Under the pieces are notes generated by a model. The model was given only the letters and a program-made list of their open reading frames with translations. It was not told the DNA's origin and searched no databases. A program made the position numbers and the translations under genes. 46,893 nucleotides of DNA from Phycisphaerae bacterium (GTDB taxonomy: Bacteria; Planctomycetota; Phycisphaerae; Sedimentisphaerales; Anaerobacaceae), in assembly GCA_028714855.1 (NCBI GenBank), contig JAQTLP010000012.1:1-46893 (forward strand). Reading direction: 5' to 3'. This document shows positions 1-41,480 of the stretch, one piece after another; the first letter of the stretch is position 1, and each line of letters starts with the position of its first letter.

Positions 1-127
1 ATTATAAATACCTTCATAATTGTCTTTAACAATTTTATATGCCCTGATTTTGGCGGGCTGGTCGAGAAGTAAGTATAACGGAGTTGTAAGATATTTATTC
101 ACGCCTTTGGCATAGCGAAGGTCGGCA
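1..127. repeat. Terminal direct repeat; bases 1..127 are identical to 46767..46893 (contig self-overlap, i.e. circular or permuted genome)
   Basis: Exact 127-nt identity read by eye. The overlap ends inside the 15-bp tandem array and inside an ORF. Confidence 0.9.
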
Positions 128-495
128 TAGCGAAGGTCGGCATAGCTAAGGTTGGCATAGCGAAGGTTGGCATAGCTAAGGTCGGCATAGCGAAGGTTGG
201 CAGAGCGAAGGTCGGCATAGCGAAGGTCGGCAGAGCGAAGGTCGGCATAGCTAAGGTTGGCAGAGCGAAGGTCGGCAGAGCGAAGGTTGGCAGAGCGAAG
301 GTCGGCAGAGCGAAGGTCGGCAGAGCGAAGGTCGGCAGAGCGAAGGTCGGCAGAGCGAAGGTCGGCAGAGCTAAGGTCGGCCTTCGCTCTTATTGCCGCT
401 TCAATTGCCAAGCGCCAATTTTCCGTTTTGATAGAAAACAAAATACTGTCGGTTAGTTTGTGTTTAATTTCAAATTTCATTGTTAATTTGCTCAT
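1..495 (-). CDS. Pentapeptide-repeat protein, N-terminal part. Start ATG at 495, RBS AAGGAG. The ORF runs off the window start and continues in frame at 46893..46479 (one gene across the circular junction).
   Basis: Minus-strand translation gives MSKLTMKFEIKHKLTDSILFSIKTENWRLAIEAAIRAKADLSSADLRSADLRS...ANLRYADLRYAKGV. The A(D/N)LXX units are in frame with ORF 46479..46868. Confidence 0.75.
   Translation of the reverse strand, partial: MSKLTMKFEIKHKLTDSILFSIKTENWRLAIEAAIRAKADLSSADLRSADLRSADLRSADLRSADLRSANLRSADLRSANLSYADLRSADLRYADLRSANLRYADLSYANLRYANLSYADLRYADLRYAKGVNKYLTTPLYLLLDQPAKIRAYKIVKDNYEGIYN
109..378. repeat. 18 tandem copies of a 15-bp unit (GGCATAGCGAAGGTC and variants GGCAGAGCGAAGGTC / GGCATAGCTAAGGTT); each encodes one pentapeptide A(D/N)L(R/S)(Y/S) on the minus strand
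   Basis: Units counted one by one. Units 13-17 are identical. Variation is confined to 3 positions per unit. Confidence 0.95.
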
Positions 496-496
496 T

Positions 497-724
497 TTAT
501 CTCTCCTTCGGTATCGAGTTTATTATTTCGCGCTCCCTTTTCCTGCCTTCTATCGGCACAAATCCGGCATGGGGTTTCTTGTTTGTAAGCCACACCCAAC
601 CTGTAACTCGACAATAACAATATCTGCACAATGCACCAACATACCAGCGAGTGTTATATTTACATAGCCCCTTTTTCCCGCAAAAAGGGCATTTGCCAAA
701 TTTTCTACCTTTGTTTCGATTCAT
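497..724 (-). CDS. Small Cys-rich (CPFC...CRYCYC) zinc-finger-like protein; its stop overlaps the downstream start (TAAAATG)
   Basis: ORF with CxxC pairs; operon context on the minus strand. Confidence 0.45.
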   Translation of the reverse strand: MNRNKGRKFGKCPFCGKKGLCKYNTRWYVGALCRYCYCRVTGWVWLTNKKPHAGFVPIEGRKREREIINSIPKER

Positions 725-745
725 CTTTTTCCTTCTTTTATCCTT

Positions 746-1327
746 TTATGGGTATTTTAATGCTTGTTTGGCTAATTTGATAAGCGGCAGACGTTTTTTA
801 AACGTATCAGCTGCCGTCCAAGCTGCATATCTCTCTACATCAAATAAATTAGCCGAACAAGCTGCATAAGCCGCATCATTGGCACAAAAAGCCGTACAAT
901 TCATATCAATTGCCGCACGGGCCGCATCAATCGTTCTATCCCTACCATTCAACCAGTTATTAGCCCATTTGTTCCATTTTCTGTTTTTATAGATTTCCTT
1001 AGTAACCAAAATACCAAACGCAATCTTTTGATTCTTTGTTAATTCGGGTAGTGGAATTTCCTGAACCAATCGCATTTTAGTAAAACCAAATTTTAGTCCC
1101 CTATCGGATTTTTTCTCGCCTCCAACCTTTATTTTGAATAATCGGGGGTTTTTTATACCACCGTGGACTGGATTTAAGAATACGGCCAACAATGGAGAAT
1201 TATAGCAATGTAGCCAGTGTTCAGTACACAACTCGCCTTTACCATCGGCTTGTTCCCATTTGCCGATAGTCCATTGAAAACCTCGGTATGTTCCCAAATT
1301 CTGGTCTGTCAGTTTATAATATGGCAT
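746..1327 (-). CDS. Hypothetical protein (193 aa from ATG 1327, RBS GAGGG; longer ORF reaches 1444)
   Basis: ORF; internal Met with SD preferred as start; no recognisable motif. Confidence 0.5.
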   Translation of the reverse strand: MPYYKLTDQNLGTYRGFQWTIGKWEQADGKGELCTEHWLHCYNSPLLAVFLNPVHGGIKNPRLFKIKVGGEKKSDRGLKFGFTKMRLVQEIPLPELTKNQKIAFGILVTKEIYKNRKWNKWANNWLNGRDRTIDAARAAIDMNCTAFCANDAAYAACSANLFDVERYAAWTAADTFKKRLPLIKLAKQALKYP

Positions 1328-1588
1328 TTCAATTCCCTCGGTAAAAAATGCCTGCCGCAGTCGTAAGCTGCGCCGTGCGAGCGGTCGGAGTGATGGACGT
1401 ACGGCAGGCCAACAAGGCTGGTTTGGTTTCAAATTGTCTCGCACGGCTTTTCATAATGTTAGGATTATCGGCGTTCTTCTTAAATCTGTCAAGTGTATTT
1501 TCTTGTTTTTTATGTACTTAACGTCTTAAATATTCATAAGTATTTGCAAAATAACGCAGTTACAATGAGAAAAAATATTTCAAAATAG

Positions 1589-1945
1589 TCAGGAATTTTC
1601 TTGGTTATCTTTTGTGTCGAAAAGAGTTTCCGCTTTTGTAATGGCTGCGCGCATTTCGGATATAGCTATAGCGGAAACAGTTTTGGCGTATTCATCATCA
1701 TCTACACCGCAAATAAACATCGCCTCATCGTGCAATGCCAATAACTTTTTGCACGCTTCCAGCAAATCCGGAGCGGCGGCTATCAATTGGGCGTCAGCTT
1801 CATCGAGTATATAACCTTTTCCTATATCATTTCTGCCGACCACAATGCGGTATCCGCCTTCACTGGGCTTGTCTGATAATTTGGCCAAAATCCCAAGTTG
1901 AGAACCATTTTTGCGTACTTCCCATTTTTCTTTTGTGCGTTTCAT
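1589..1945 (-). CDS. Hypothetical protein, 118 aa
   Basis: ORF with AAGGAG RBS upstream of the ATG at 1945. Confidence 0.55.
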   Translation of the reverse strand: MKRTKEKWEVRKNGSQLGILAKLSDKPSEGGYRIVVGRNDIGKGYILDEADAQLIAAAPDLLEACKKLLALHDEAMFICGVDDDEYAKTVSAIAISEMRAAITKAETLFDTKDNQENS

Positions 1946-1957
1946 TTTTTTCTCCTT

Positions 1958-2197
1958 TTAACATAATTGTTTTGGCTTGACGAAAACATATCTTTTTTGA
2001 TGATAACAACTTAAAAATCGCCCCGCTTTTTGTGTCCAAGGAGGGTATTGGTCAACGGACACTTTCTTTCGCCATATTAACCTGGCTGTTTTTAAGCACC
2101 AACACTCTTTGATGCCGTAAGGATTGTTGCTGTTATAGAAATTATCTTCACAGCCGCTACAGTATTTTAGTTTTTCATAATTTTTCATAATACGCAA
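1958..2197 (-). CDS. Small Cys-rich protein, 79 aa
   Basis: ORF with CSGC / CWC motifs; tightly packed with its neighbours. Confidence 0.4.
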   Translation of the reverse strand: MRIMKNYEKLKYCSGCEDNFYNSNNPYGIKECWCLKTARLIWRKKVSVDQYPPWTQKAGRFLSCYHQKRYVFVKPKQLC

Positions 2198-2338
2198 CTC
2201 CCCTTTTTTTTCTAATATCTTTTTCTATTTTCATTTTTTTCTCCTTTTCTAAAAGATATTTAAACTGTTTTGGGTTTTATTTTTACCAAACTAAACTCGC
2301 CGAGCAATCTCGCAAGTTTTGACCGGCAACGCGCTCTA

Positions 2339-2566
2339 TTACAAACAGGTTGATTTTCTTGGCGTTCTGCGCGGGCTTGTGATGGAGTGTTTGCGTACTG
2401 TGCCAACATTCTTTTCCCAAAAATCTGTATATAGTTTAAGGATAAGTTCGTCGGCTGCTTTAGTTGCGATGATACCGATGTTTTTGTTATAGACCACAGC
2501 ATCCTCGATTGTGTATAAGTCTTTATCGGTCAAAATACCCTCGAATAATTGTTTTTCACGTTTCAT
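2339..2566 (-). CDS. Hypothetical protein, 75 aa
   Basis: ORF with AAGGAG RBS. Confidence 0.5.
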   Translation of the reverse strand: MKREKQLFEGILTDKDLYTIEDAVVYNKNIGIIATKAADELILKLYTDFWEKNVGTVRKHSITSPRRTPRKSTCL

Positions 2567-2581
2567 TTTTTTCTCCTTAGA

Positions 2582-3148
2582 TTATTGCTTTTGGGTTATT
2601 TCATATAAATTGTGGGGGTTTTCTTTACTGAAACAAGCATCTAAGCTTTGGCTTGCGAAAACGCTAATTCTTTTTCTGGAACATCCTTTTTTTCTGCCTT
2701 CTTTTATACGCCGTTTTTCTGCGATGAATTTGTATTTTTTGGGCTTTATAATTCTATCTATTTTAGCCCATTTTTTTCGGTACTCTAAGCGTTGTTCTTT
2801 TAATTTTGGGTATTCCGCAAGCTTAGTTTTTCTCCGCAGATTTGCTAATTTGTTGTAGCATTCTTTGCAATTTTTACGCATATTACCAACTGGGTTATGA
2901 GAAAATTCTTCTATGGGTTTTACAATATGACAGATATTACAAATTCTACTTGTCGTTGGTAACGGTTTTGGTTTTGCACGTTTTCTTTTCCACGCTTTCT
3001 GGTAAAAATTAGTTATCTTTCTTTGGCAGTCTTTGCAAATTTTATGAATAAGGCCACCGTTGTGTTGGTAATAAAAATCCGAAAAAGGTTTTTTCTTTTG
3101 GCAATGCCCACAAACCCTTACAACCAACAGTCGTCCTTTTTCTTTCAC
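2582..3148 (-). CDS. Tandem zinc-ribbon protein (two CxxC-x12-F-x-HN-x-G-x-CxxC modules) with a very basic K/R-rich C-terminal half; probable nucleic-acid binder. GTG start.
   Basis: CGHCQKKKPFSDFYYQHNGGLIHKICKDCQRK and CNICHIVKPIEEFSHNPVGNMRKNCKECYNK read in the translation. Confidence 0.5.
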   Translation of the reverse strand: MKEKGRLLVVRVCGHCQKKKPFSDFYYQHNGGLIHKICKDCQRKITNFYQKAWKRKRAKPKPLPTTSRICNICHIVKPIEEFSHNPVGNMRKNCKECYNKLANLRRKTKLAEYPKLKEQRLEYRKKWAKIDRIIKPKKYKFIAEKRRIKEGRKKGCSRKRISVFASQSLDACFSKENPHNLYEITQKQ

Positions 3149-3291
3149 ACTATCTTTTAAAACAGGTGAAAATAGATTAGGAAAACCATTTTTGATGGCT
3201 ACTTTGATTGTTTCTATTTCTTTATTGTCCGTAGCAATTTCTCCTTTTTTTCATAAAATCCCAGGCAGGCAGTTGCCCGCCATAATTAACC

Positions 3292-3318
3292 GGTCGCCAG
3301 TTAGTATTAACTGGCGGC
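3292..3318. other. Perfect 8-bp hairpin GCCAGTTA-gtat-TAACTGGC in a non-coding patch
   Basis: Inverted repeat read directly. Confidence 0.6.
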
Positions 3319-3332
3319 CTATTGTGCCGTAT

Positions 3333-3352
3333 GGTATGGGAGTCGAACCCAT
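3333..3352 (-). other. tRNA T-arm-like element (minus strand ATGGG-TTCGACT-CCCAT followed by ACCATAC-G); no matching 5' acceptor strand, so not a complete tRNA. Possible tRNA 3' fragment / att-like site.
   Basis: GGGTTCGACTCCC matches the GGTTCGAnTCC T-loop consensus with a 5-bp flanking stem. The complementary GTATGGT was searched for and is absent upstream. Confidence 0.35.
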
Positions 3353-3501
3353 AATCCTCGTCCGCCGCAGCTCGCCACAACCGCTTCCGCAGCTCTTATA
3401 AATGGACGCTGTGCATTCCTTCTTTACACCAAACCATATCCGCCGTTTAGGCGATTTCGTTATCATATAAAAGATTTCAATGATAAGTTTTATTATTACT
3501 T

Positions 3502-3529
3502 CCAGCCCCTGCCAACGCGGCAAGGGGCT
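3502..3529. other. Strong GC-rich hairpin (11 bp with one bulge: CAGCCCCTGCC-aacgc-GGCAAGGGGCTG) just 3' of the small membrane-protein gene on the minus strand
   Basis: Inverted repeat read directly; no U-run follows on either strand. Confidence 0.55.
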
Positions 3530-3539
3530 GAATAGGCGG

Positions 3540-3722
3540 TTAATGTTTGTTGTACAACCCGAAAAATATAGCTGTTAATAATACAAAAAGAAACACAACG
3601 AAGGCGGCAGTCGGCATTTCTGCTTTATTACCCCTAATATAATCAGCCACATATCCTGCCATAAAAAACAAGGTGAACAAAAGGAAGAATACAAAAAAAC
3701 CTGCCGTTATAGCTTCTCTCAT
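3540..3722 (-). CDS. Small membrane protein (60 aa, two hydrophobic helices)
   Basis: ORF; RBS AAAGGAA; hydrophobic sequence FFVFFLLFTLFF...FVVFLFVLLTAIFF. Confidence 0.5.
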   Translation of the reverse strand: MREAITAGFFVFFLLFTLFFMAGYVADYIRGNKAEMPTAAFVVFLFVLLTAIFFGLYNKH

Positions 3723-3767
3723 AATTTATTCCTTTCTTCCCCGCTAACGCAGGGATGGGTTCAAGAA

Positions 3768-3935
3768 TTACCAATCCATTTCGTCCAGTGCATCTTCCGT
3801 AGCCATATCTTTTAATACTTCATCAGTGGCCGGTTCGTTTCCTTCGTGCTTAACTGGGCGGCTGTCATTTAAACAACCAATTATTTGATACTGTTCGTTA
3901 ATAGTTTGATGTGCTTTTGTTTCTTTCTTTGCCAT
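3768..3935 (-). CDS. Small acidic protein, 55 aa (MAKKETKAHQTINEQYQIIGCLNDSRPVKHEGNEPATDEVLKDMATEDALDEMDW); absent from the ORF track because it is under 60 aa
   Basis: Hand-translated; RBS AAAGGGAAA 6 nt upstream of the ATG. Confidence 0.4.
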   Translation of the reverse strand: MAKKETKAHQTINEQYQIIGCLNDSRPVKHEGNEPATDEVLKDMATEDALDEMDW

Positions 3936-3958
3936 TTTAATTTCCCTTTCGCAGATTT

Positions 3959-4156
3959 TTAACTTGTTAATGGGTCTGGCTTAAAATCGTAAAACGCCCA
4001 AGGCGTTTTAAGACTAATTTCCACGTTTCGCTCAAAAATTGATTCTATTGTACCTTTTTCGTAATAACCGTGATGCTCTAAATAATCAACTGCTTGTTCA
4101 GGAGTAATTTCAAAAGGAATTTCACCTTCGTGGTTAAATGTTTTTGTGATTCTCAT
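3959..4156 (-). CDS. Hypothetical protein, 65 aa
   Basis: ORF; weak SD AAAGGCGG. Confidence 0.4.
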   Translation of the reverse strand: MRITKTFNHEGEIPFEITPEQAVDYLEHHGYYEKGTIESIFERNVEISLKTPWAFYDFKPDPLTS

Positions 4157-4289
4157 AGTTTGGCCGCCTTTCTACTTAGCCGCTATTAACTTTAAATATG
4201 TTTTACGTTTTAAATCCTTGTAGCCGACTCGAACGGCCACGCAGGCCGTGCCCTGCAAGGATAATAGCGGTCAAGCTATTTGAAGGTTG

Positions 4290-4679
4290 TTAGTTTTTTC
4301 TTAACAGTTTTCTGCCTCTTGTGCAAACCGGTAAACATTCACATTTATTGCAATTTGGTTTATCGCAGTTCCCGTATGTTTTTGACTCAAAATAAAAACC
4401 GCTTAATCGTATCGGAGCAAGTCTTTTGTCATTAAGTCTCCGAACGATAATCGTATGTATTCCGATACTATACGGCGAAACATTATCATTCAAAGGATAA
4501 GCCAAAACCTGCCATAATTCTTTTTTGCCGTGATAGTATTGGTTTTCTCTGTATCTGTTTGTATTCATAACAAGGTAGCCGATTGAACCAACAGGGGGAA
4601 GTTTTGAATGGTGTAAATTTGTTATTTGTGTTAGCATTGTTTGACCGCTACTTTCCGCCTGACCGCTATTAACTTTCAA
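4290..4679 (-). CDS. Hypothetical protein with a Cys-rich C-terminus (CDKPNCNKCECLPVC); probably the first gene of the leftward operon (alternative ATG at 4637)
   Basis: ORF; position adjacent to the divergent control region. Confidence 0.4.
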   Translation of the reverse strand: MKVNSGQAESSGQTMLTQITNLHHSKLPPVGSIGYLVMNTNRYRENQYYHGKKELWQVLAYPLNDNVSPYSIGIHTIIVRRLNDKRLAPIRLSGFYFESKTYGNCDKPNCNKCECLPVCTRGRKLLRKN

Positions 4680-5171
4680 AAGAGCATTTACTCTTTATGT
4701 ATAATATCGGTTATTCCGCGTGAAAAGTCAAGTACAAAGTCTAATAAAATAAAATAATTATTATTGCTAAGTGCTTGATAATAAAGGATTTAAAAAGGGG
4801 GTAAAAAATAGTTAGGTGGGGACATCATAATAAATAGATTGCAATTCAACTTTCCGGTTTTATCGGGAAATATCAAATTGTTTGATTTGTTATTTCGGGC
4901 TACGTTTACCCCTACCCAGCAAAGATAATCGCTCATATCGCATCGTGGAGCGTTTTTCTTAGATGTTAAGTGCTTGTAAATAAACGACTTAGGGGGTATG
5001 GTCTTTTTTGGGCTAAAAATGAGGGCAGGAAGAACGTAATATGCGGTTTTTAAGGAAGCAATAAAGGCATTATAATTGGCATCTTTAGACCCAAAAAACA
5101 TATCAAAGGATATGTCAAAACAGCCATATTACTCCTTGAATATAAATACCTGTGAATTAAGCAGTTACGTA

Positions 5172-5287
5172 AAATATAGCAAGATAGTGTTATTTTTTGT
5201 AATAACAGGGTTATTTTATGACTATTTTATGTTATTTTGGCTGTTTTCAAGCTAAAAACGCCATAAACAAATATTAGCAAGATAGTG
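5172..5287. promoter_or_regulatory. Two copies of an 18-20 nt box AAATAT(T)AGCAAGATAGTG (5172..5189 and 5267..5287) flanking and overlapping the promoter at 5291
   Basis: Direct repeat read by eye, ~95 bp apart. Confidence 0.5.
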
Positions 5288-5290
5288 CTA

Positions 5291-5318
5291 TTGACAAAAA
5301 AAGCCAAATTGATATAAT
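5291..5318 (+). promoter_or_regulatory. Near-consensus sigma70 promoter: TTGACA(5291-5296), 16 bp, TGaTATAAT (extended -10, 5313-5318), pointing at the late/structural operon
   Basis: Perfect -35 and -10 hexamers with a TG extension. Confidence 0.6.
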
Positions 5319-5475
5319 CTTCTTCAGCTTCTTCTTCCTGAAGGAACGTTATTCTTAACCCATAGACAAGGTTAGAGTTGTCGAAGGGTAAGGAGAAGTA
5401 GGAGTAGTTCTTCGGTAGAAGTAAGGTAAAGTAAAAATGGTGCAAAAAACAAGCAGAAAGACGCCAAAAATTAAA

Positions 5476-5540
5476 GACGTCAACAACTTGTCAACAAGTC
5501 AACCAAATGTCAACACCTGTTATCAATGTCAACCATAAAG
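5476..5540. repeat. Iteron-like array: six direct copies of GTCAAC(A/C) within ~65 bp, plus one inverted GTTGAC at 5585
   Basis: gtcaacaa / gtcaacaa / gtcaacca / gtcaacac / gtcaacca counted in the sequence. Confidence 0.6.
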
Positions 5541-5585
5541 ATAAAGAAGAAGAAAAGAAAAGTATAAAAGAAAAAGATACAAATG

Positions 5586-5613
5586 TTGACAATCCCATTG
5601 AAGGTAATATACT
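5586..5613 (+). promoter_or_regulatory. Second sigma70-like promoter: TTGACA(5586-5591), 16 bp, TATACT(5608-5613)
   Basis: Perfect -35; 5/6 match at -10. Confidence 0.45.
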
Positions 5614-5947
5614 AAAAACCATACCAAAGGCAAAATTATCAAATAAAGAATTCGAGCAACGAAGGCAGAGGAACATTGAAGTATTGAAAGTAAAGTAGTT
5701 TTCTAAAGAAGGACTTTTGCCGCGAATTAGTTAGGGCCTTCATAACTATTTTAGCGAATAGAGGTTAATACGGACAAGAAAGTCTCCAATTTTACAGTTG
5801 GGGACTTTTTTGCTTTACAATTATAAGCATTTCTAAATATTCTATAAGTAAATCTAATTTTTCTCTTGACACGCCGAATATTAGAGTTACACTTAACGTA
5901 AATGATGCCGAAAAGCAACAAAAGGTTGTTTAACAAACAAAAAACAA

Positions 5948-6223
5948 ATGTTTCAAAAAGGAAAATCAGGTAATATACACGGTCGTCCAAAAGGCAGCAG
6001 AGATTTTGGCACTGAGCTTGTAGCAGCTATTAAACGTGCCGAAAAACGCGATAAAGAGTCTTTGCTTGATTATGCCGTTCGGCGCGCGCGAGCGAGTGAT
6101 AAGGTGCTGTGCTCGTTATTGAGCAAGGTCGTTCCTGATTTGTCTATTAACGATATTCCTGCTTTGCGAGAATTTCTTGTAAACATAAGCGTTACAAAGA
6201 CTTATAAACAGAATGATAGTTGA
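5948..6223 (+). CDS. Putative terminase small subunit, 91 aa (basic, with GNIHGRPKGS motif), overlapping the large terminase start
   Basis: GRPKG-type motif common in small terminases / DNA-binding phage proteins; sits immediately upstream of terminase large; no clear SD. Confidence 0.45.
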   Translation: MFQKGKSGNIHGRPKGSRDFGTELVAAIKRAEKRDKESLLDYAVRRARASDKVLCSLLSKVVPDLSINDIPALREFLVNISVTKTYKQNDS

Positions 6224-7655
6224 TTTTAATCCAGTTTTGAGTATAAAGCAGACAGAGGCATTTGACGCCCTTGAGGACTTAGCGATTGATGAGGTGCTTT
6301 TTGGCGGTGCAAAATACGGAGGGAAAAGCTGGTTTTTGTGTGTTTGGGTTTTTTTAACTGCGTGCAGGTTTATCAGGGAACACAATATCCCACAGAGCGA
6401 CCACCCGCTCCCGATTGGCTTTATAGGTCGTAAAATTGCCAAGCATTTCAAAGACACGACATTAGAGACGTGGTTCAAGACTATTCCAGTTGACGGATAT
6501 GTTGTCAAAGACGACCCTGCTTCAATTATAATCGATAATCGGGTTAAGGTTGATACGGGTGGGTTCGATAATCGTGAAACGATTAAGAAGTTTAATTCTG
6601 CCGAATACGCTTTTTATGCGATTGACCAAGCAGAGGAAACGACTGAGGATGATTTAAGTTTATTAAGAGCGGCCACATTTGGCCGGTTGGTGGTAAATGG
6701 CAAGCCAATAGCCGGTAAAGCGTTATACACAGCCAATCCGGCTCAATGCTGGCTAAAAAAAGAATTCATTGATTCGGTTAAGCCAAATAAGCGGTTCATT
6801 TCTGCTCTGCCGAGCGATAATCCGTATTGTACGCAAAGGTATATTGACAATCTTAAAGATAGCTTTAAACATCGTCCGGAGCTATTACAGGCGTACTTAT
6901 ACGGTAACTGGTCTGCCATTGAGGGCGTTAATCAGGTAATCAAGAGTAATTGGGTGTCCGGCGCCGCTGTTCGGTTATGGCACAAGCCGAACATCGTCAA
7001 AAAGGTTATTGCGTGCGACCCTGCGAGATTTGGTGATGATGAGACTGTTATATATTATCTCGAAGATGGTGTTATCGTTGACGAATTGATTTACGGTATG
7101 AAGGACACCATACATACAGCCAATCAAATAGCGTGGCTAATGGACGCTAAGGGGTGCAAGACTGCCATTATTGACGTTATTGGTATTGGTGCTGGTATCG
7201 TGGACTGGCTGAATGAAAGAAACAACACGCCCGACAATGAACATCGGGAAGGCAAAGGTTGGACTATCATCGGGTTTAACAGTGCAGAAAAAGCCGTTGA
7301 CGAGAACAGGTTTTACAATAAGCGTGCTGAGGCGTGGGATTATGCGGCCAAACAATTTAGCGATGGTAAAGTCATATTACGGTCTGATGGTAAAAAAGAT
7401 ATTGTGTTAGAGAACCAATTATGCCTGCCTTGCTATGAGTTTAGAAATGGCCGTATGCTTATCGAGAACAAGGATGACATTAAAAAGCGTTTAAGTTCGA
7501 GTCCCGACAGGGCTGATGCTTACATAATGGGTATTTGGGCAAATGGTATGTTTACTATAAACGATGGTATTTCAGTTAATCACAGAATTGATTTGACCCC
7601 TTCTGCCTATCACGGCAACCCGTTAACACGGGGAATGAGAATAGGAGCGGCGTAA
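6213..7655 (+). CDS. terL: Terminase large subunit (ATPase + nuclease), 480 aa
   Basis: Walker A GGAKYGGKS near the N-terminus; IDQAEE Walker B-like motif; C-terminal ACDPARFGDDETVIYY nuclease-domain signature typical of headful terminases. Confidence 0.85.
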   Translation: MIVDFNPVLSIKQTEAFDALEDLAIDEVLFGGAKYGGKSWFLCVWVFLTACRFIREHNIPQSDHPLPIGFIGRKIAKHFKDTTLETWFKTIPVDGYVVKDDPASIIIDNRVKVDTGGFDNRETIKKFNSAEYAFYAIDQAEETTEDDLSLLRAATFGRLVVNGKPIAGKALYTANPAQCWLKKEFIDSVKPNKRFISALPSDNPYCTQRYIDNLKDSFKHRPELLQAYLYGNWSAIEGVNQVIKSNWVSGAAVRLWHKPNIVKKVIACDPARFGDDETVIYYLEDGVIVDELIYGMKDTIHTANQIAWLMDAKGCKTAIIDVIGIGAGIVDWLNERNNTPDNEHREGKGWTIIGFNSAEKAVDENRFYNKRAEAWDYAAKQFSDGKVILRSDGKKDIVLENQLCLPCYEFRNGRMLIENKDDIKKRLSSSPDRADAYIMGIWANGMFTINDGISVNHRIDLTPSAYHGNPLTRGMRIGAA

Positions 7656-8393: not shown

Positions 8394-10163
8394 ATGACAG
8401 CGTGGGACGACAAGAAACTGTTCGATAAGATTACAGACCTGCTAACACAGTTAAAGGCGGCTTATAATGTTTTCAATCCCTGCCGTGATACTATTGCAAG
8501 TATTTTCAGGCCTGATTTAGGAATAGATACAAGTAAGGACGGCTTCTTTGGTGCAGATATTTATGAAGGTACGCCCGTTTGGGCTTCCCGCGTGTGGGCA
8601 AAGGGATTTCAGGGCAATCTTGTTTCGATGAATATAGACTGGATTTCCTATTCGATGAAACAGTTCGAGCTAAAGGGTATAGACCGGCTTGACCAGTGGT
8701 GTCAGGACGTCCGAGACCACATGAGCGCATCTTATCGGCAGAGCAATTTCTACGAAGTCCAGCCGCAATTCACGCTTGATGGTGGTACTATCGGTTCGCC
8801 CGTAATGTTGTGTGAGGAAAGTTCTGTTCTTGAAAGCCGGACGATGTGGCTTCCACAGCATTATAAGCAGTGTTACGTTTCGTATGATAAGTACAATCGG
8901 CCTAACGGCCTGATAATTGAAGACCCGACTTGGACGGTCAAGAAGGTTTGGGATACGTTCTGTCAAGGAAGGACGAGCGAAGAAAAGGCAACGTGGGCAA
9001 CCGAACATCTTAGTTTGCAATTCAATAATTTTATCAAGAGCGGCAATTTTCATACGAAACTTACTCTTGCCTATGCTATTTTCAGGAAAGATGATTTAGT
9101 ATGGGGTACTTGGAAACCGGCCAATTCAGGCACAGACCATAAATGGATTGGTGTATATTTCGAGAACGGAAGCGATAAAGATAAAGACAATCCATTAAAA
9201 GTTGACAAGTTCTTTGCCAAACCGTTTGTTGTGTGGGATTACGAGAAGAAATATTACGACCCTGTTTCAAGAACACCCGCTTATATGGCTATATGGGACA
9301 ATCAGAGTTTGCAGCAGATAACGAAACAGTATCTTGAGAATTTGCAGCACAAGAACAATCCGCCCCGATATATGCTGAAGGGTATGTTGGGCAGGGTGGA
9401 TTTCTCCCCTTCGGGAATAACTACTGTTGATGCCAGTGAATACCAGACCCCCCCAAAAGCATTAGACACCATTGGCGATATTCAATGGAATTTCGAGGGC
9501 GTTAAAGTAGCTAAGGAAAATGTTGAACGCTGGTTCGAGCTAAAGGCGTTTACAATGTTCAATAATCTTGTCGAGCAGGGTGGGAGTCCGCCTACTGCTG
9601 CGCAGATATGGCAAATGGTAGGTGAGAAGGCAACGTTAGTTACCGGTATAGAATCTCATAGCAAATATCTAAGGGATTGTGATGAGCAGAAGATGGAAAT
9701 TGAGGTTCGGGCCGGTCGTGGGCCTTTTGCCCCTGATGTTTTGGCGAATATATCCGATGTGATTCTGGCTAATAGCAAGATTTATCCTGCCGATAATATG
9801 ATGGATATTGTGCCGGAGTTCATCGGGCCGCTTAACAGGGCGCAGAGAATACAGCAGTCGTTAGCCCCGATAGAGTCTGGCTTTGCGGCAATGTCGCCGA
9901 TATTTGCGGCCTTCCCCGAAGCTAAGTATATTCTCAAAGTTTACGAGTTAGTGGACTATATCAGGAACGCTACGAATTTCCCGATAAGCACGATAAACAC
10001 CAAAGAGGATTGGGAAGCGGTTGTTGATGGTATAAACAAACAGATGCAGCAGGACAAGCAGTTTGCACAGATGATTGAGTCAGCTAAGGCGGCAAAAGGA
10101 GTTTCCGGCAAGGTTGAGCCAGACAGTATTTTAGGCGCATTGTCAGGCGGGAAGGCGGCGTAA
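8394..10163 (+). CDS. Portal protein (assigned by size and position), 589 aa
   Basis: Large ORF immediately after terminase and the morons, before the scaffold/capsid; RBS AGGTG. Confidence 0.6.
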   Translation: MTAWDDKKLFDKITDLLTQLKAAYNVFNPCRDTIASIFRPDLGIDTSKDGFFGADIYEGTPVWASRVWAKGFQGNLVSMNIDWISYSMKQFELKGIDRLDQWCQDVRDHMSASYRQSNFYEVQPQFTLDGGTIGSPVMLCEESSVLESRTMWLPQHYKQCYVSYDKYNRPNGLIIEDPTWTVKKVWDTFCQGRTSEEKATWATEHLSLQFNNFIKSGNFHTKLTLAYAIFRKDDLVWGTWKPANSGTDHKWIGVYFENGSDKDKDNPLKVDKFFAKPFVVWDYEKKYYDPVSRTPAYMAIWDNQSLQQITKQYLENLQHKNNPPRYMLKGMLGRVDFSPSGITTVDASEYQTPPKALDTIGDIQWNFEGVKVAKENVERWFELKAFTMFNNLVEQGGSPPTAAQIWQMVGEKATLVTGIESHSKYLRDCDEQKMEIEVRAGRGPFAPDVLANISDVILANSKIYPADNMMDIVPEFIGPLNRAQRIQQSLAPIESGFAAMSPIFAAFPEAKYILKVYELVDYIRNATNFPISTINTKEDWEAVVDGINKQMQQDKQFAQMIESAKAAKGVSGKVEPDSILGALSGGKAA

Positions 10164-27827: not shown

Positions 27828-29570
27828 ATGTATTGTTTACCAAAATATTTAGCCGATAAATTTCTGGAAGCGTTAAAACGCGGGACTGTAACGCCGGACA
27901 AACTTACTGATATGACCTCTGCCGAAAGAAGGGCGTTTTTTACCGAAATGCTTGGCGAAGAACACGCCGTACAAGTCAATTCGCTGTTTGAGAGCAAGTT
28001 ATTATTAAAAGACCAGCAAAGAGGAATTATCACTTGGGCGAAACAGACTGCCGGAATAAGCAAGCAGGCGCAAAGGGACATTATTTCAAGAGTCGATAAA
28101 ATGACGGAAATTCTTAATCCCGCCACACAGGACGCTTTTCTTGAAGATATAGTAGCTCATAAATTAGATGTTACGGTAACAATGGAACAGGCCGCTAACA
28201 TTTCATCTCTTGGTAAAATAGCCCTCGACAAGAAAATTATTATGGAAGCGTCCGAAAGACGGCTGACCGGCCAGAGGCAGACACCGACCGAGAAAGAATA
28301 CGGTGATGCACGGGTAGCTTTTAGCAATTACATAAGCGACCTCAAAACAAAAGCAAAGCAAAAAAGTGTTTATGAATATTTGCGTATGCCCAGAACGGCA
28401 TTTTCAGAACTGGCGGGACTGGCAAAGGCGTCTAAAGCGTCTTTAGATAACAGTGCAATCCTACGGCAGGGTTTAAAGGTACTTTGGACGCACCCAACAA
28501 TATGGCTTAAAAACTCCGCCAACACTTTTGTGGATATTTGGAAAACGCTCGGCGGTGAAAATGTAATGGACGAAATCAACTCTGATATAGTATCGCGACC
28601 GACTTATGATAATATGATTAAAGATAAACTGGCCGTAGGCGTAATGGAAGAAGCATATCCCACGCACCTGCCCAGCAAAATTCCCGTTCTCGGCAAACTG
28701 TTCAAGGCGAGTGAAGCAGCGTATACGGGATTTATGTATAGAAACAGAGCAGATTTGTATGATTTATATACCGAGATTGCGATAAAATCCGGCTTGCCGA
28801 CAACGACCGATTTGGGTATTGGCAGACTTGTAAATTCCCTAACCAGCAGGGGCAATGTCGGCAGATTAGAACCGATAGCAAGCACTCTTAATAATGTTTT
28901 CTTTGCACCAAGAAACCTTAAAGCAAACTTCGATATTTTAATGGCACACACATTCGATAAAAATCTGAGTCCTTTTGTAAGGAAGCAAGCGGCCATAAAT
29001 CTGGTAAAAATAATAAGTGGAACGGCTGCTATTCTTGTTATTGCAAAAGCAATTGACCCTGACAGTGTAGAGGTTGACCCCCGCAGTGCAAACTTCGGAA
29101 AAATAAGAGTAGGTGATACGAGATTTGACGTTACCGGTGGAATGGCGGGAATAGTTACATTGGCTTCACGTTTAATAGTTACATTGGCTTCACGTTTAAT
29201 AACGATGAAAAGCAAAAGCAGTATTACAGGTAAAACGGTTGATTTATGGTCGCGCAAATACGGTGCGCAAACCGGCAAAGATGTTGTTTATGATTTTTTT
29301 GAGAATAAGTTTTCACCCGCAGCGCAATTAGCTAAGAATATTTTAGAGGGCAGTGATTATCGCGGCAATAAAATAACATTCACGGGAGAGCTTAATACTT
29401 TTATAACACCGCTGCCGGTTACTACTTATCAGGAATTGGCAAACAATCCGAACTCCGCCAATATAATTTTATCTATGATTTTTGAGGAATTGGGTGTCAG
29501 TACGAATACATATTCTAAAAAGAAAAAAGGCAGTAATGTTATTAAGCAACCGAAAACTAAATCGGATTAG
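27828..29570 (+). CDS. Virion-associated protein, 580 aa, containing an exact 24-bp in-frame tandem duplication (IVTLASRL x2)
   Basis: atagttacattggcttcacgttta occurs twice in tandem at 29151..29198. Confidence 0.45.
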   Translation: MYCLPKYLADKFLEALKRGTVTPDKLTDMTSAERRAFFTEMLGEEHAVQVNSLFESKLLLKDQQRGIITWAKQTAGISKQAQRDIISRVDKMTEILNPATQDAFLEDIVAHKLDVTVTMEQAANISSLGKIALDKKIIMEASERRLTGQRQTPTEKEYGDARVAFSNYISDLKTKAKQKSVYEYLRMPRTAFSELAGLAKASKASLDNSAILRQGLKVLWTHPTIWLKNSANTFVDIWKTLGGENVMDEINSDIVSRPTYDNMIKDKLAVGVMEEAYPTHLPSKIPVLGKLFKASEAAYTGFMYRNRADLYDLYTEIAIKSGLPTTTDLGIGRLVNSLTSRGNVGRLEPIASTLNNVFFAPRNLKANFDILMAHTFDKNLSPFVRKQAAINLVKIISGTAAILVIAKAIDPDSVEVDPRSANFGKIRVGDTRFDVTGGMAGIVTLASRLIVTLASRLITMKSKSSITGKTVDLWSRKYGAQTGKDVVYDFFENKFSPAAQLAKNILEGSDYRGNKITFTGELNTFITPLPVTTYQELANNPNSANIILSMIFEELGVSTNTYSKKKKGSNVIKQPKTKSD

Positions 29571-33032: not shown

Positions 33033-33070
33033 ACAGCCCAAGACTGAAAACGTCAAGGGCTGTTTTTATT
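33033..33070 (+). terminator. Intrinsic terminator at the point where the two arms converge: ACAGCCC-17 nt loop-GGGCTGT, then TTTTTATT
   Basis: 7-bp stem + T-run read directly. The T-run overlaps the stop of the minus-strand gene; there is an A-run on the other side. Confidence 0.5.
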
Positions 33071-33623
33071 GCAATACCTTTTCTGCTTCAAACAAGTTGT
33101 CAACATTTGGATAATCAGTTCTAACTATATCCGCACATTGAGCAAGAGTTTCTTTTCTGGCGTAGGCGGCGGCGGCGGCGTAGTCGGCGGCGTAGGCGGC
33201 GTAGTCGGCGGCGGCGGCGGCGGCGGCGGCGTAGGCGGCGGCATAGTCGGCGGCGTAGTCGGCGGCGTAGGCGGCGGTGTTGGCGGCGGCGGCGGCGGCG
33301 TAGGCGGCGTGCCTTACATCATCGAGAGTTACGCCATTTTCACCCCTCGCCCATTGCTCTGCCGTTTCAATAGCTTTTAGTGGTCGCAATTCACCTTTTT
33401 CTATATAAGGCAAAGCAAGTCTGGCACACTTGCAAGCCGTCAAAACCAACTGTTTTCGCTTATCACAGCCCGGTTCGCCGGATAGTTTACCAATTAGCCA
33501 GAGCATGTGGTCTCCTCTTTCACAGACCAACCACGCAGCTTGCATTGAACTAAACCTTTTCCCCCATTCAATAGCTTCTTGGCAAGCACCTAATTTTACA
33601 AGTTTATCAGTCCAGTGTTTCAT
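33066..33623 (-). CDS. Ala-rich heptad-repeat protein (185 aa from ATG 33623, RBS AAAGGAAA). It has an N-terminal Cys/Trp-containing domain followed by (AAYAADY)-type repeats.
   Basis: ...RHAAYAAAAAANTAAYAADYAADYAAAYAAAAAAAADYAAYAADYAAAAAYA...; the longer ORF reaches 33716. Confidence 0.6.
   Translation of the reverse strand: MKHWTDKLVKLGACQEAIEWGKRFSSMQAAWLVCERGDHMLWLIGKLSGEPGCDKRKQLVLTACKCARLALPYIEKGELRPLKAIETAEQWARGENGVTLDDVRHAAYAAAAAANTAAYAADYAADYAAAYAAAAAAAADYAAYAADYAAAAAYARKETLAQCADIVRTDYPNVDNLFEAEKVLQ
33170..33310. repeat. GCC/GGC-based microsatellite-like coding repeat ((GCC)n interspersed with TAC/GAC) encoding the AAYAADY array
   Basis: ggcggcggcggcggcgtaggcggcgtagtcggc... read directly. 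Confidence 0.85.
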
Positions 33624-33734
33624 TTTTTTTCCTTTCTTAAAATTGTTAATAATATCAGGGCGTTGCTTCGGCCTATGAGAAATTGGCATTAGCATATTTT
33701 TATTGGCAACCCACAACGCCCTGCGCTCATTTTG

Positions 33735-34607
33735 TTATTTCTTGTCAATCGCAAAGGGGAGTTCTCGCTTTCTTATACTTTCGGGCAAATCTGTGAAATT
33801 ATGGATTATCTTAAAATGGTCTTTTGTGCCTTTGTGGTATGCCTTGACCCACACCGGCACGCCAGCGGCCTTGCATTGTTCCACTACGCTTTCAATCCAT
33901 TCGCGCGGACAATAACGAGCGTTGGGGCCGGTCTCTGCGCCGACAATACAAAGACTTAGCGAAGATATACCCAACTTTTCCCCCTGCGAATACAACTTAC
34001 CGCAGCTTGTGTTATTCCGAACAACGCCGCTATTTCTCTTTGCCGTAATTCCCTCTTCCGTAGCAATTGGCGTATTTCCAATTTTATTCCATTCTAACAA
34101 ATCTATTGTAGAAATCAAGGGTTCAAATGAAATAAATTTATGTGCCGCCGGTATCTGTAAAAGTATCGGTATTCTTTCGTTTGCATACTGTTGGTTTTCC
34201 GCTGTTACGCCGAGCCAGAGGTTTTTAGGGGGGCATATATCCTTAAAACATTCCGTTATTCTTTCGGCTCTTTTTGTCAACCCTAAAAAGATATGCTGGG
34301 GACATTTTTCTACCGTTACCATTGCGTCAGTGAAAAAAGTATAAGGCACTTCACTATGCCAAAGGTCGTTCCAGATTGAAAATACTGTCGGTTTTCGAGT
34401 ATGCAGGGGAAGGTCAAGATTACCGTGACGGAATTTAATTAACCCCTTCCAGTTGTAACTTTTTATCAAGGCAAATTTATGAAACCTTTTCGCCATTGCC
34501 TCCGACCAACAGTTATCACACGCAGGACTTACTTTGGTGCAACCATCAACCAACTGCCACGCCTTTTGCCAGTAACGCCCTGCCTGTTTCATCTGTTCAA
34601 AATTCAT
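33735..34607 (-). CDS. DUF5131 / phage Gp37-Gp68 family protein, 290 aa
   Basis: N-terminal GCTKVSPACDNCW signature; RBS AAGGAG. Confidence 0.55.
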   Translation of the reverse strand: MNFEQMKQAGRYWQKAWQLVDGCTKVSPACDNCWSEAMAKRFHKFALIKSYNWKGLIKFRHGNLDLPLHTRKPTVFSIWNDLWHSEVPYTFFTDAMVTVEKCPQHIFLGLTKRAERITECFKDICPPKNLWLGVTAENQQYANERIPILLQIPAAHKFISFEPLISTIDLLEWNKIGNTPIATEEGITAKRNSGVVRNNTSCGKLYSQGEKLGISSLSLCIVGAETGPNARYCPREWIESVVEQCKAAGVPVWVKAYHKGTKDHFKIIHNFTDLPESIRKRELPFAIDKK

Positions 34608-34631
34608 TTTTCTGTCTCCTTTATTATCAGG

Positions 34632-35174
34632 TCAAACCAACTTTAAGGCCAGTTTGCCTATCTGCTCTTTTTTCCTGTGGTCTATTTCTTCCGGTGATAA
34701 TATTTCCGGTTTTTTACGGTGCATTAGCTCGTCAAACTGTTTGCGTAGTTCGGCTTTTTCTTCCGGAGTAGGCGGGACAACGGGCGGCTCTATCTTCTTG
34801 TAACTTTCCTGCCGCTTTGCCGCACGCGCCTTAATTGCTTCAATGGTCATATAATCATCAATTATAAAATTGTTTTCCAAGAACCGCCAAAACTGCTTTT
34901 CCTGTCTGTTATCAGGTCTACTTCGTATTAGAAATTGGTATAGAGTCCACGCATAACTCCAAATGCAATTTTTACTTAATAGTACAAGGGCATAATTGTC
35001 TATGGCTTTGCATATTTGCTCAACAGTATAATGCTTAAGGACATCTTTAATGGCAGTTTCCGTTTCGTAGGTTAATTCCCTATGGCTTTTCCAGTTGCCT
35101 TGACCTTTATATCTATTCCAAGAGCTAAAAACGGTTTGAATTTCTTCCGGAGTCGGCGGTTTAAATTTCTTCAT
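34632..35174 (-). CDS. Hypothetical protein, 180 aa
   Basis: ORF. Confidence 0.45.
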   Translation of the reverse strand: MKKFKPPTPEEIQTVFSSWNRYKGQGNWKSHRELTYETETAIKDVLKHYTVEQICKAIDNYALVLLSKNCIWSYAWTLYQFLIRSRPDNRQEKQFWRFLENNFIIDDYMTIEAIKARAAKRQESYKKIEPPVVPPTPEEKAELRKQFDELMHRKKPEILSPEEIDHRKKEQIGKLALKLV

Positions 35175-35238
35175 TTTCCTACCAATAATCTCTCTTACCT
35201 ACTTTACGACCTTTTCCCGCAAAGTCAAAATCTATGTG

Positions 35239-36507
35239 TTATTTACCGTCAGTTGTAACCATTATATTTGGAGGGTTATTACCAGTAGTCCACAGATTTT
35301 GCGGCAAAAGTCCTTGCCATTTGTCAATCCATTTTGCCTGATTCTCAAGCTCTTTAAGTTTTATGAAAGCAGGATTACTGTTGGCTTTGGCGGCAGCATC
35401 GGCAACAAGCTGGATACCCTTTGCTTCTCCCTCGGCTCGTTTTATACGTGCCTGTGCTTCAGCATCGGCAGCCATAACGATAACTTTATTTTTGTCGTCC
35501 TGTGCTTGTTTTAAAGCAAGAGCCACATTCTTTTGCTGTTGGGATACAAAGACATCATCAATGGCTTTTTGAATATCCTTATTCTCGTATTCAAAGCCGC
35601 CAAACATACCAATATTCTGAACTGTTATTCCGCGTTGGGTAAAAAACTCCGTAATTTCCTTAACGACCGCATCACTAATAGTATTCTTAATATTGCGGAG
35701 TTCGTCCATTTTATATCCAGCGGCAACCTGTTGGACTACTTTTTGAATTTTGCCACGAACCTCTAAATCCATAACAGTCGCAAGCGAACCCGTAGGATAC
35801 CAATACAGGAATGTTGCGGCGTCTTTTTCCTGAACGTAAGCAGTACAGGTAAAGCCGGTACTAAACCCGATACTGTCCTGTGATTCTACCCAAATAGCTT
35901 CATTTTTTCCGGTTGTTCCCGTTGTTTCGTTGACTGTCCACTCGCGGGTAACGGGAGTTCTGTCCACCTTGATTACAACGATGTTTGGAATCCAATTGCC
36001 ATTTCGGTTAAAGCGACCCGTTTTCTGCCAGCGATGTGATATTTGAATACGTTTAGTAGCTACCTGCATTTTTTGTAGAGATTCTACTGACTGCATTTTT
36101 TGTTGCAAATCAGTTTTGTTTTCGAGTGGTATTACAAAAGCTGTTTCATTATTTTTAACTTCAACAAATTCTTCTTTGTCGTATGGCTTCGGACAACCCG
36201 TTAATACAAATGACGAGACAGACAAAATAGCCAAAATAGCAATTTTAGCAAGGTGTTTTTGAATTAGTTCTTTTGCCGGTTTCCACCAAACCAAAAGCAA
36301 GATAACGATACAAACAAACCACCCCCATGAACCTGCGCCGGATTGAAGTTGTTGAATAAGACGCAGAGCTTCTCTTGAACCATCTTCGTTCATTTGGCCA
36401 AGAGCAAGGTTTGCGGTAGTGTTGGGCAACACGCCCTGATACAAAGCGATATTTATTGTCGCTACCATTACTACAAATACAGTAGTTAATACAATTCTCG
36501 TTTTCAT
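35239..36507 (-). CDS. Membrane-anchored SPFH / band-7 (stomatin/prohibitin/HflK-C-like) protein, 422 aa
   Basis: N-terminal hydrophobic segments plus a lipobox-like FVLTGC; C-terminal AEAQARIKRAEGEAKGIQLVADA typical of SPFH; RBS AGGAG. Confidence 0.55.
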   Translation of the reverse strand: MKTRIVLTTVFVVMVATINIALYQGVLPNTTANLALGQMNEDGSREALRLIQQLQSGAGSWGWFVCIVILLLVWWKPAKELIQKHLAKIAILAILSVSSFVLTGCPKPYDKEEFVEVKNNETAFVIPLENKTDLQQKMQSVESLQKMQVATKRIQISHRWQKTGRFNRNGNWIPNIVVIKVDRTPVTREWTVNETTGTTGKNEAIWVESQDSIGFSTGFTCTAYVQEKDAATFLYWYPTGSLATVMDLEVRGKIQKVVQQVAAGYKMDELRNIKNTISDAVVKEITEFFTQRGITVQNIGMFGGFEYENKDIQKAIDDVFVSQQQKNVALALKQAQDDKNKVIVMAADAEAQARIKRAEGEAKGIQLVADAAAKANSNPAFIKLKELENQAKWIDKWQGLLPQNLWTTGNNPPNIMVTTDGK

Positions 36508-36544
36508 TTTTTAATCTCCTAAAAAAGGTTAATAATTTTCCACA

Positions 36545-37291: not shown

Positions 37292-37466
37292 TCAAAACTC
37301 TCCACAATCACGCAGGTTCGTTTTAGCCGTATTTCCTGCTGCCAATAACCAAGAAAACAGCACCAGCGAAGGCGTATGCGTTATTTCAGCCGTTTAAACC
37401 ATACCTCTTGTTAAATCCCGCAATAATACAACCCTTTTGCATCGGCAAGTGGCCCGAACACCCAAT

Positions 37467-37958: not shown

Positions 37959-37999
37959 TTAATACCTCTCGTAGTATTTCTCGAAATTGAGACACAGCA

Positions 38000-38026
38000 G
38001 GGCGGGTCGAGATGCCCCGCCTTTTC
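38000..38026 (+). terminator. GC hairpin GGCGGG-9 nt-CCCGCC followed by TTTT, in + orientation between two minus-strand genes (possible antisense or bidirectional terminator insulating the HNH gene)
   Basis: Read directly. Confidence 0.35.
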
Positions 38027-38055
38027 GGTAGCTAACCTATCTGTGTTAAAGTATA

Positions 38056-38550: not shown

Positions 38551-38569
38551 ACGATTCCTTCTTTCTCCT

Positions 38570-40484: not shown

Positions 40485-40511
40485 TAGCTTTTTATCCTTA
40501 ATTTAATTCCT

Positions 40512-40976: not shown

Positions 40977-41055
40977 TTTTCACTACTCCTTTTTCGTATC
41001 AACCATTCTCATCTTAATTCCTTCAATCAGTTTGCAACCTTCCTCGTAATCAGGA

Positions 41056-41427: not shown

Positions 41428-41480
41428 ATTTACCTCATAACTTATATTTAGCTTTAAATTCCTCTACTTGCCGTTGACGC

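Follow-up and report, generated by a model that had tools for sequence, protein, structure and literature searches.

The stretch of DNA analysed here (the window) is a contig of 46,893 bp whose first and last 127 bases are identical (1-127 = 46767-46893); because of this 127-bp terminal overlap the assembly is circular, with a circular length of 46,766 bp. The window is the whole genome of an uncultivated, tailed, podovirus-like phage, in which two gene arms diverge at 4637/5948 from a non-coding stretch of about 1.3 kb (4638-5947), the only large non-coding region of the genome. This stretch is securely the main divergent control region of the phage, and it contains an array of GTCAAC hexamers among strong predicted promoters that may serve as a recognition site for genome packaging. 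An earlier note on the same DNA, made from its letters, had both arms starting here and described a divergent control region; the circular assembly, the divergence of the arms and the statistically outstanding promoters all bear this out.

The + strand arm extends from 5948 to about 32.7 kb, and the - strand arm from 4637 leftward across the contig junction to 33,066. Pfam and PHROG matches assign structural functions to the + strand (terS, terL, a T7-type portal at 8394-10163 and tail proteins), and to the - strand a methylase, HNH and endonuclease I/VII-type nucleases, a winged-helix protein and many unknowns. In GenBank the proteins carry the name 'MAG: Phycisphaerae bacterium'. The right border of the control region is terS (5948-6223, +), the first gene of its arm, which encodes a DUF5681-type small terminase (Pfam PF18932, 29.5 bits) and is overlapped by the large terminase gene terL (6213-7655, +, PHROG 2). 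The terS gene has no Shine-Dalgarno (SD) sequence, and its leader is CA-rich. The left border is the first gene of the leftward arm (4290-4637, -), encoding a 115-aa protein of a conserved family of unknown function. Its start is ATG 4637, where all ten homologues (49-64% identity) begin with MLTQITN.HHSKLP; the earlier note had placed the right border correctly at terS, but had started the left arm at 4679. Most genes of the phage are preceded by strong AGGAG-type ribosome-binding sites (median anti-SD pairing -5.9 kcal/mol), which would suggest a host with classical sigma70-type promoters.

Three sigma70-type promoters were predicted in the control region, and in a genome-wide ranking they are the three best + strand matches, all with 16-nt spacers and in the same orientation. 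P1 (5291-5318) reads TTGACA-16-TGaTATAAT, a 12/12 match with an extended -10 (TG at -15/-14), and is the sole site of such quality in the genome, with about 0.02-0.05 expected by chance. P2 (5586-5613; TTGACA-16-TATACT) matches at 11/12 positions and the terS-proximal P3 (5866-5893; TTGACA-16-TACACT) at 10/12. P1 and P2 are present just as the earlier note had described them, and both came out among the best three in the promoter prediction that it had proposed as a check. If they fire as predicted, all three would transcribe into terS, terL and portal, that is, into the structural (late) arm and away from the early arm, so the suggestion of an early promoter does not fit. The best candidate for a leftward, early-arm promoter is a putative site at 4731-4703 on the - strand (TTGACT-17-GATATT, 9/12), 66 nt upstream of ATG 4637. 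A promoter-like sequence (TTGACA-17-AATAGT with TG, 10/12) was also seen on the - strand at 6480-6508, antisense within terL and directed toward terS and the control region.

P3 is followed, 8 nt downstream, by an ATGATG at 5902, which opens a basic 23-codon open reading frame (ORF; 5902-5973) that overlaps the start of the SD-less terS out of frame with it. Loss of one A from the A6 run at 5939-5944 would fuse this ORF with terS. In five relatives (L004, L008, L016, L017 and L234), TTGACA/T, a 16-19 nt spacer and a -10 are found with the terS ATG 6-8 nt beyond the -10, which is a leaderless geometry; P3 shares it, but relative to ATGATG 5902. By this comparison P3 would be a promoter type common to the relatives, and P1, P2 and everything between them would be specific to this phage. 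A search with TerL for closer relatives, covering IMG/VR, JGI metagenomes, GTDB genomes and an index of 5.8e9 proteins, gave at best 54-57% identity over the full length; in two short contigs the identity is 71-72%, over N-terminal fragments. The distant relatives contain no alignable counterpart of the control region or of the unit that runs from P1 to a terminator, and their upstream layouts differ, some being collinear and some divergent, with a spacer of only 200-300 bp. The control region also had no DNA match in 50,697 phage records or 72,556 plasmids.

Taken together, a terminator, a leader hairpin and P3 indicate that P1 heads a discrete closed unit of about 490 nt, which on sequence grounds comprises the leader hairpin, the GTCAAC array, ORFs of 33 and 63 codons, P2 and the terminator. 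The P1 transcript would begin with a stem-loop (5322-5431, +) formed between a 5' arm rich in pyrimidines and an AGGAG-like arm rich in purines (minimum free energy -33.1 kcal/mol, z = -2.5 vs shuffled controls). The intrinsic terminator has a 17-bp stem (5775-5812, +) followed by the T-run TTTTTTGCTTT, which ends at 5818. It folds to -21.6 kcal/mol (z = -7.05) on the + strand vs -12.9 on the - strand, a strand specificity due to G-U pairs, and a simple terminator scan had missed it because the pattern of the scan did not fit the hairpin. Scanning of 4600-6000 with Rfam 15 gave nothing at threshold, the best score being 22.3 bits vs a threshold of 55, on the terminator hairpin, and the weak matches there reflect only the hairpin. 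The leader stem-loop matched no Rfam family even at E <= 10, and a tRNA scan found nothing in the control region. The terminator, the leader hairpin, P3, the leftward site at 4731-4703 and the possibility of packaging were all absent from the earlier note; the first three changed the reading of the region, with P3 as a putative terS promoter shared with relatives.

Within this unit, the array (5479-5533, +) contains five exact GTCAAC copies, starting at 5479, 5490, 5498, 5509 and 5528, and a degenerate copy, GTTATC, at 5519, so that of the six repeats first claimed five are exact. All have one orientation, with start-to-start spacings of 11, 8, 11, 10 and 9 (mean 9.8 bp), and they lie at +154 to +208 relative to P1 and 415-470 bp upstream of terS. 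No other hexamer in the genome is packed as densely as these five GTCAAC in 55 bp, and in 100 genomes simulated with a Markov-1 model the number never rose above four. The exact copies agree at all 30 hexamer positions, while the spacers between them (5, 2, 5 and 13 nt) are unrelated, and relative to either small ORF the copies are not in a common reading frame. A constant hexamer with variable spacers and mixed frames points to selection on a binding site rather than to a repeated peptide or the decay of a tandem duplication. The array therefore looks like a selected multi-site protein-binding field, a candidate that agrees with what the earlier note had proposed. An inverted copy (5585-5590) is fused to the -35 of P2, as that note had also seen, and between it and the array lies a 50-bp AT-rich polypurine tract (5537-5586, +); purines make up 86% of its + strand, a stronger bias than in any other + strand stretch of the genome.

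The possibility that the array is a cluster of - strand promoters (TTGACA x3) was rejected, as there is no -10 partner at 15-18 nt. Counts of GTTGAC on the sense strand of both arms show a modest excess (23 vs 12.0 +/- 3.4 in codon shuffles), most of them in-frame Val-Asp codons; with this bias on both arms, its orientation on the + strand flips at the control region. Literature on the hexamer gave nothing relevant.

IMG/VR was scanned for three GTCAAC copies with 2-5 nt gaps, which yielded at least 120 loci. Of the matches listed, at least 37 loci have arrays of no fewer than four copies whose spacings are non-triplet and, for the most part, about 8-11 bp. Also among these, in seven contigs of one lineage (L058, L067, L070, L079, L090, L115 and L136), the gene in the terS position, which precedes a lambda-gpA-type terL, has 4-5 GTTGAC 6-25 bp upstream of it, in one orientation in 6/7, with spacings of 7-23 bp, mostly 8-14 bp. 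The cultured Pseudomonas phages Lodos (L147, 760-815) and LPPA36 (L146, 300-360) have GTTAAC x4 at the same position, after the same conserved flank. Protein-recognition sites such as cosB are expected to behave in this way, with a hexamer that differs between relatives and a position that is kept, so that, by position and hexamer change, the arrays of this Pseudomonas lineage are candidate cosB sites; no experimental report of them as cosB was found. Other matches listed have GTTGAC arrays directly after a Toprim/VapE primase gene (L028, L083, L141 and L042), followed in L083 and L141 by an SNF2 helicase gene, and these are candidate iterons of a replication module. In giant-virus bins among the same matches, perfect 11-bp tandem arrays were found in or beside a zinc-finger protein gene. 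Judged from these sequences, arrays of the hexamer would be real, recurrent binding fields, in packaging and replication contexts alike.

Other assemblies of the same phage also bear on the region. Two copies of a 28-nt repeat, T(G/A)(C/T)TAAGTGCTTG..AATAAA, are present at 4765-4792 and 4964-4991 (82% identical), the only two matches in the window vs 0.2 expected, and tandem 21-mers (TATAAGCATTTCTAAATATTC and TATAAGTAAATCTAATTTTTC; 5822-5863, +) lie downstream of the terminator, inside the most AT-rich 50-mer of the genome (5813-5862). The identical phage is present in four further assemblies (GCA_043956695.1 and Logan SRR22315505/07/08), each of which ends in the region, at 4825, 4964, 5843 and 5854. 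The breaks at 4964 and 5843 coincide exactly with the start of a repeat copy (of the 28-nt repeat and the 21-mer, respectively); two independent Logan contigs begin at 5843 and 5854, and one independent contig begins at 4964. These breaks could be population variants, physical genome ends or merely the effect of low coverage in AT-rich DNA, and as a sign of a terminus they are suggestive at most.

Packaging sites almost always adjoin terS, and short repeats in non-coding DNA upstream of terS, the mark of pac and cos sites, are what the array provides. The genome has no second cluster of this kind, and this one is situated in the leader of terS. These two points, with the precedent of phage SPP1, the Pseudomonas arrays beside terS and the four assembly breaks, are the reasons for favouring a composite control region with a packaging site. 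A first module would be the promoter region of the early, DNA-metabolism arm, with the candidate at 4731-4703. In a second module P1 would lie behind curved DNA and short repeat families, most likely regulator sites, and would transcribe the structured leader, the array and the 63-codon ORF before ending at the strong intrinsic terminator, with P2 nested inside. The third module would be P3, the putative promoter of terS and the structural operon that is found also in relatives. With a spacing of about one helical turn, copies on one helix face and an inverted copy 50 bp away across the purine tract, the array would be a cooperative field for an oligomeric DNA-binding protein. That protein would be the small terminase of the phage, and the array a pac- or cosB-like recognition site in the leader of the late operon. 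We hold the array to be a terminase recognition field of this kind only tentatively, at somewhat less than an even chance, with both the binding protein and the cut site putative; packaging is at least as likely as an origin of replication.

In SPP1, the pac region (pacL-pacC-pacR) contains sets of short direct repeats, candidate small-terminase sites, that lie together with the terminase-operon promoters and reach from upstream of terS into the gene (PMC4737164). The present region is similar in that repeats and terminase promoters share the same stretch. It differs in that the SPP1 repeats span the terS start, whereas here the array is placed well upstream, with a terminator and a promoter between, and in that TerS is of the DUF5681 type. 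The lambda-gpA-type cosB sites (the R sites of lambda, and those proposed for Lodos, LPPA36 and the IMG/VR contigs) resemble the array in having 4-5 hexamers at short spacing in non-coding DNA before terS, and the IMG/VR contigs in having the same hexamer, in one orientation in 6/7 of those among the matches listed. However, their array abuts the terS start in the opposite orientation, the terminase is of the gpA type, and the protein in the terS position is unrelated.

Several observations weigh against packaging. P2, the terminator and P3 intervene in the 415-470 bp between array and terS, whereas the Pseudomonas array abuts terS, in the opposite orientation and beside an unrelated protein. 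The contig breaks do not fall at the array and may reflect only the extreme AT-richness of 5813-5862. Among the matches listed, arrays of the same hexamer right after primase genes support an origin equally. The gene-like score of the 63-aa ORF could explain the purine tract and would place the array in a 5' untranslated region or start region. Lastly, the searches through TerL found no close relative that would show the array, the boxes upstream of P1, P1 or P2 to be conserved.

Direct repeats are also typical of iteron-type origins, such as lambda ori or the P4 ori with its TGTTCACC octamers. The region could thus be a transcription-activated replication origin, in which the GTCAAC copies would be iterons for a phage or host initiator and the polypurine tract the place of unwinding or R-loop formation. 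A non-coding transcript from P1 would activate or prime replication, and the terminator would keep this transcript out of terS. The repeats, the inverted copy, the AT-rich strand-asymmetric tract and a promoter reading through them provide the repeats and AT-rich element of an iteron origin, with the phasing and the passing transcription of lambda and P4, and the least stable 500-bp window of the genome falls in the control region. The unit also has no functional ribosome-binding site after P1, and its 63-codon ORF is an ORFan (an ORF with no homologue). No replication gene was recognisable: by Pfam, PHROGs or PDB sequence search, no DNA polymerase, helicase, primase, single-stranded DNA-binding protein, initiator, integrase or repressor was recognised in the - arm (33066-46893 and 1-4637). 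Host-dependent priming is therefore conceivable. The arrays directly after Toprim/VapE primase genes in other viral contigs point in the same direction.

The position of the region, at the divergence of the arms and 0.8-1 kb from the minima of cumulative skew, would also suit an origin. These minima, the check that the earlier note had proposed, do lie near the region (GC at 4529, AT at 4721; maxima near 33.1-33.3 kb), but exactly at the switch points of gene orientation. They are not independent evidence of an origin, because they coincide with this switch and are 0.8-1 kb from the array. There is no DnaA box (TTATCCACA) within one mismatch in 4638-5947, and two 2-mismatch matches in the array (5488 and 5584) are the TTGTCAACA repeat copies themselves. 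A cognate initiator gene was not identified by Pfam, PHROGs or PDB sequence search of the early-arm proteins, the only hint being a weak PHROG match (E = 0.005) for 34632-35174; a divergent initiator is conceivable. Four unknown proteins of this arm gave nothing in PDB sequence searches. Unlike those of lambda and P4, the repeats are only 6-7 bp and lie beside terS, not in a replication module. AT-richness and purine bias also occur in other intergenic or Lys/Glu-coding stretches, and the tract may just as well belong to the 63-aa ORF as its Lys/Glu-rich part.

A close precedent in layout is that of the Ceduovirus phages, whose origins are variable non-coding stretches between two tandem promoters; they lie where the early genes diverge from the late ones and need no phage protein to function (PMC7150918). 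As in phage c2, where a PE1-T transcript lies between the divergent early and late blocks, the logic would be similar to that of lambda ori, and the region found here is an AT-rich, non-coding, variable stretch between divergent blocks, with tandem promoters in one direction and no ribosome-binding site after the first. However, the c2 promoters face the early genes and those found here the late ones. The c2 ori has no ORF of at least 100 bp, whereas the region here includes one of 192 bp that scores like a gene. The control region shows no sequence similarity to any phage or plasmid origin, nor DNA similarity to any phage record. On balance an origin is possible but doubtful.

Three families of short repeats surround P1. 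Box A (AAATATAGCAAGATAGTG; 5172-5189, +) and Box B (AAATATTAGCAAGATAGTG; 5269-5287, +) share the exact 13-nt core TAGCAAGATAGTG and are the only matches in the window at 0 and 1 mismatch. The earlier note had reported both boxes as bracketing the first promoter; they are present, but both are upstream of P1, with centres at about -143 and -45, and Box B ends 3 nt before the -35. Read on the - strand, each box contains TGCTA(A)TAT(T), an extended -10-like motif, and these motifs may add to the leftward promoter region. Between the boxes are T-tracts phased at ~10 bp (5195-5245), tied for second strongest in the genome, and boxes and T-tracts are likely regulator sites and/or curved upstream DNA for P1. 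A box-like match at 43319, inside a small coding ORF, was dismissed as chance. A further pattern, AAAA(C/A)AGCCA(A/T)AT, derived post hoc, has only three matches in the window, all within 200 bp: 5117-5129 (+), 5235-5247 (-) and 5297-5309 (+), the last within the P1 spacer. This spacer motif (AGCCAAATTGA) was seen again as AGCCCAAATTGA in the terS promoter spacer of the relative L016, and an IMG/VR scan for it gave chance matches only, with no TerL homologue nearby. In the composite region favoured above, the boxes and the AGCCAAAT motif in the P1 spacer would be the regulator sites of the second module.

These repeats are also consistent with the array being an operator or roadblock. A phage regulator would bind it cooperatively, block elongation from P1 and, by way of the inverted copy at the P2 -35, exert either repression or activation on P2, thereby timing the rightward unit and the late genes, with the boxes and AGCCAAAT motifs as further operators of P1. 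A perfect-consensus promoter normally needs repression, not activation, and the inverted copy overlaps the P2 -35 exactly. The three separate repeat families around P1, one of them inside its spacer, and the recurrence of the spacer motif in the terS promoter of L016 also speak for regulation. However, GTTGAC contains the -35 core TTGAC, and the inverted copy may be nothing else than the P2 -35 preceded by G. A site 150-200 bp downstream of one start or 90-140 bp upstream of another would be unusual for an operator, and neither a repressor-like nor a Q-like gene was recognised by Pfam or PHROGs. The earlier note had named the winged helix-turn-helix protein (43445-43786), or a host factor, as a candidate binder of the array, and no link between this protein and the array was found: its gene follows immediately on the one before it, and the closest GTCAAC copy, at 44423, is in a gene ~640 bp upstream. 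An operator function is considered rather unlikely, though both it and an origin are serious competitors of packaging.

The two small ORFs of the unit overlap each other. The 33-aa ORF (5437-5538, +) scores as non-coding, whereas the 63-aa ORF (ORF63; 5507-5698, +; 192 bp; GenBank PHG53_09475) has a 3-periodic coding score of +0.13 bits/codon, typical of real genes. ORF63 has no ribosome-binding site (SD pairing 0.0 kcal/mol) and no homologue among 5.8e9 and 1.84e9 proteins, and its structure model shows a disordered N-terminal part and then one helix, with no globular fold. Promoter, ORF and terminator, together with the GC content of the unit (32.6% vs about 42% for the genome) and the lack of a counterpart in relatives, are in keeping with a horizontally acquired, moron-like cassette. 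This would express the 63-aa protein, the ~490-nt RNA or an RNA of ~190 nt from P2. GUCAAC would then have its effect in the RNA, as an SD-independent, CA-rich enhancer of translation, as alternative partners of GUUGAC, or as a repeat that titrates a protein.

SD-less translation does occur in this phage, since terS too has no SD and a CA-rich leader, and the whole P1 RNA folds below shuffled controls (z = -3.8). In the folded RNA the inverted GUUGAC copy pairs with the copy at 5509, which holds the ORF63 start codon, with P(unpaired) 0.00 for both. On the other side are the absence of ORF63 homologues and its poorly ordered model, the absence of any Rfam match, copies that are only partly accessible in the predicted RNA ensemble, and a perfect hexamer with variable spacers, which is more typical of DNA-protein sites. 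Such a cassette is quite improbable. Less probable still, to the point of being a long shot, would be a unit that as a whole is a regulatory RNA of ~490 nt, whose five GUCAAC repeats, together with the GUUGAC copy able to pair with each of them, would titrate, or be remodelled by, an oligomeric nucleic-acid-binding protein; if true, this RNA would follow a TRAP- or CsrB-like sponge logic and time the switch from the early to the structural arm.

Late control in lambda runs through PR', the 6S RNA and tR', with antitermination by Q. The unit described here is similar in that a promoter of strong, constitutive appearance would yield a short terminated transcript, with the late genes following downstream from terminase on. 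It differs in having no Q-like protein, no -10-like pause in the first 30 transcribed bases, and P3 between the terminator and terS. Antitermination of the lambda Q type was therefore not supported: no Q family was detected in the ~45 scanned proteins, no TAnnnT-type pause is present in 5319-5350 (cttcttcagcttcttcttcctgaagg...), and P3 follows the terminator.

Other features were observed on the left side of the region and elsewhere in the genome. An AlphaFold model of the 115-aa first leftward protein is a small SH3-like beta-barrel of low confidence (mean predicted local distance difference test 59) with no significant PDB match, and homologues of the gene are found in unrelated gene contexts. 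An element of ~29-45 nt with AAAGTTAATAGCGG is repeated before the first two genes of the leftward arm (4651-4679 and 4168-4196, -), and a structured GC-rich hairpin (4215-4290, -28.2 kcal/mol) lies between its two copies. A 103-aa ORF at 4790-5101 (-) was rejected, as it has no SD and a coding score near zero, and its product is absent from the gene records of the assembly collection.

The contig junction falls inside the gene for a 260-aa pentapeptide-repeat (ADLRS) protein, with a 15-nt tandem array at 49-438. On the coding strand of the - arm, between the HNH endonuclease and endonuclease I genes, there is a match to the int-alpA RNA (Rfam RF02996; 37979-38047, -; 37.9 bits vs a gathering threshold of 35.8), and no integrase was recognised among the scanned proteins. 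Further repeats include GGC-rich 9/12-nt repeats within an Imm5-like gene (33141-33327), where one Logan contig appears to end by arithmetic of its start and length; degenerate ~36-nt repeats (38607-38997) in a 611-bp stretch without a confident gene; and a perfect 24-nt tandem duplication in a tail-region gene (29150-29197).

The control region overturns no current knowledge, being a well-equipped but ordinary kind of phage control region. GTYRAC-type arrays with a spacing of about one helical turn recur in unrelated viral contigs beside terS or primase genes, and such hexamer arrays would be usable as a marker, from sequence only, for candidate recognition sites of terminases or initiators. 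For this phage, from a poorly sampled lineage and binned with a Phycisphaerae metagenome-assembled genome, the region would be the start of transcription for both arms. It is probably also the place where packaging or replication starts or is controlled, and knowing which of them would help to define the ends of the genome and the switch from early to late expression.

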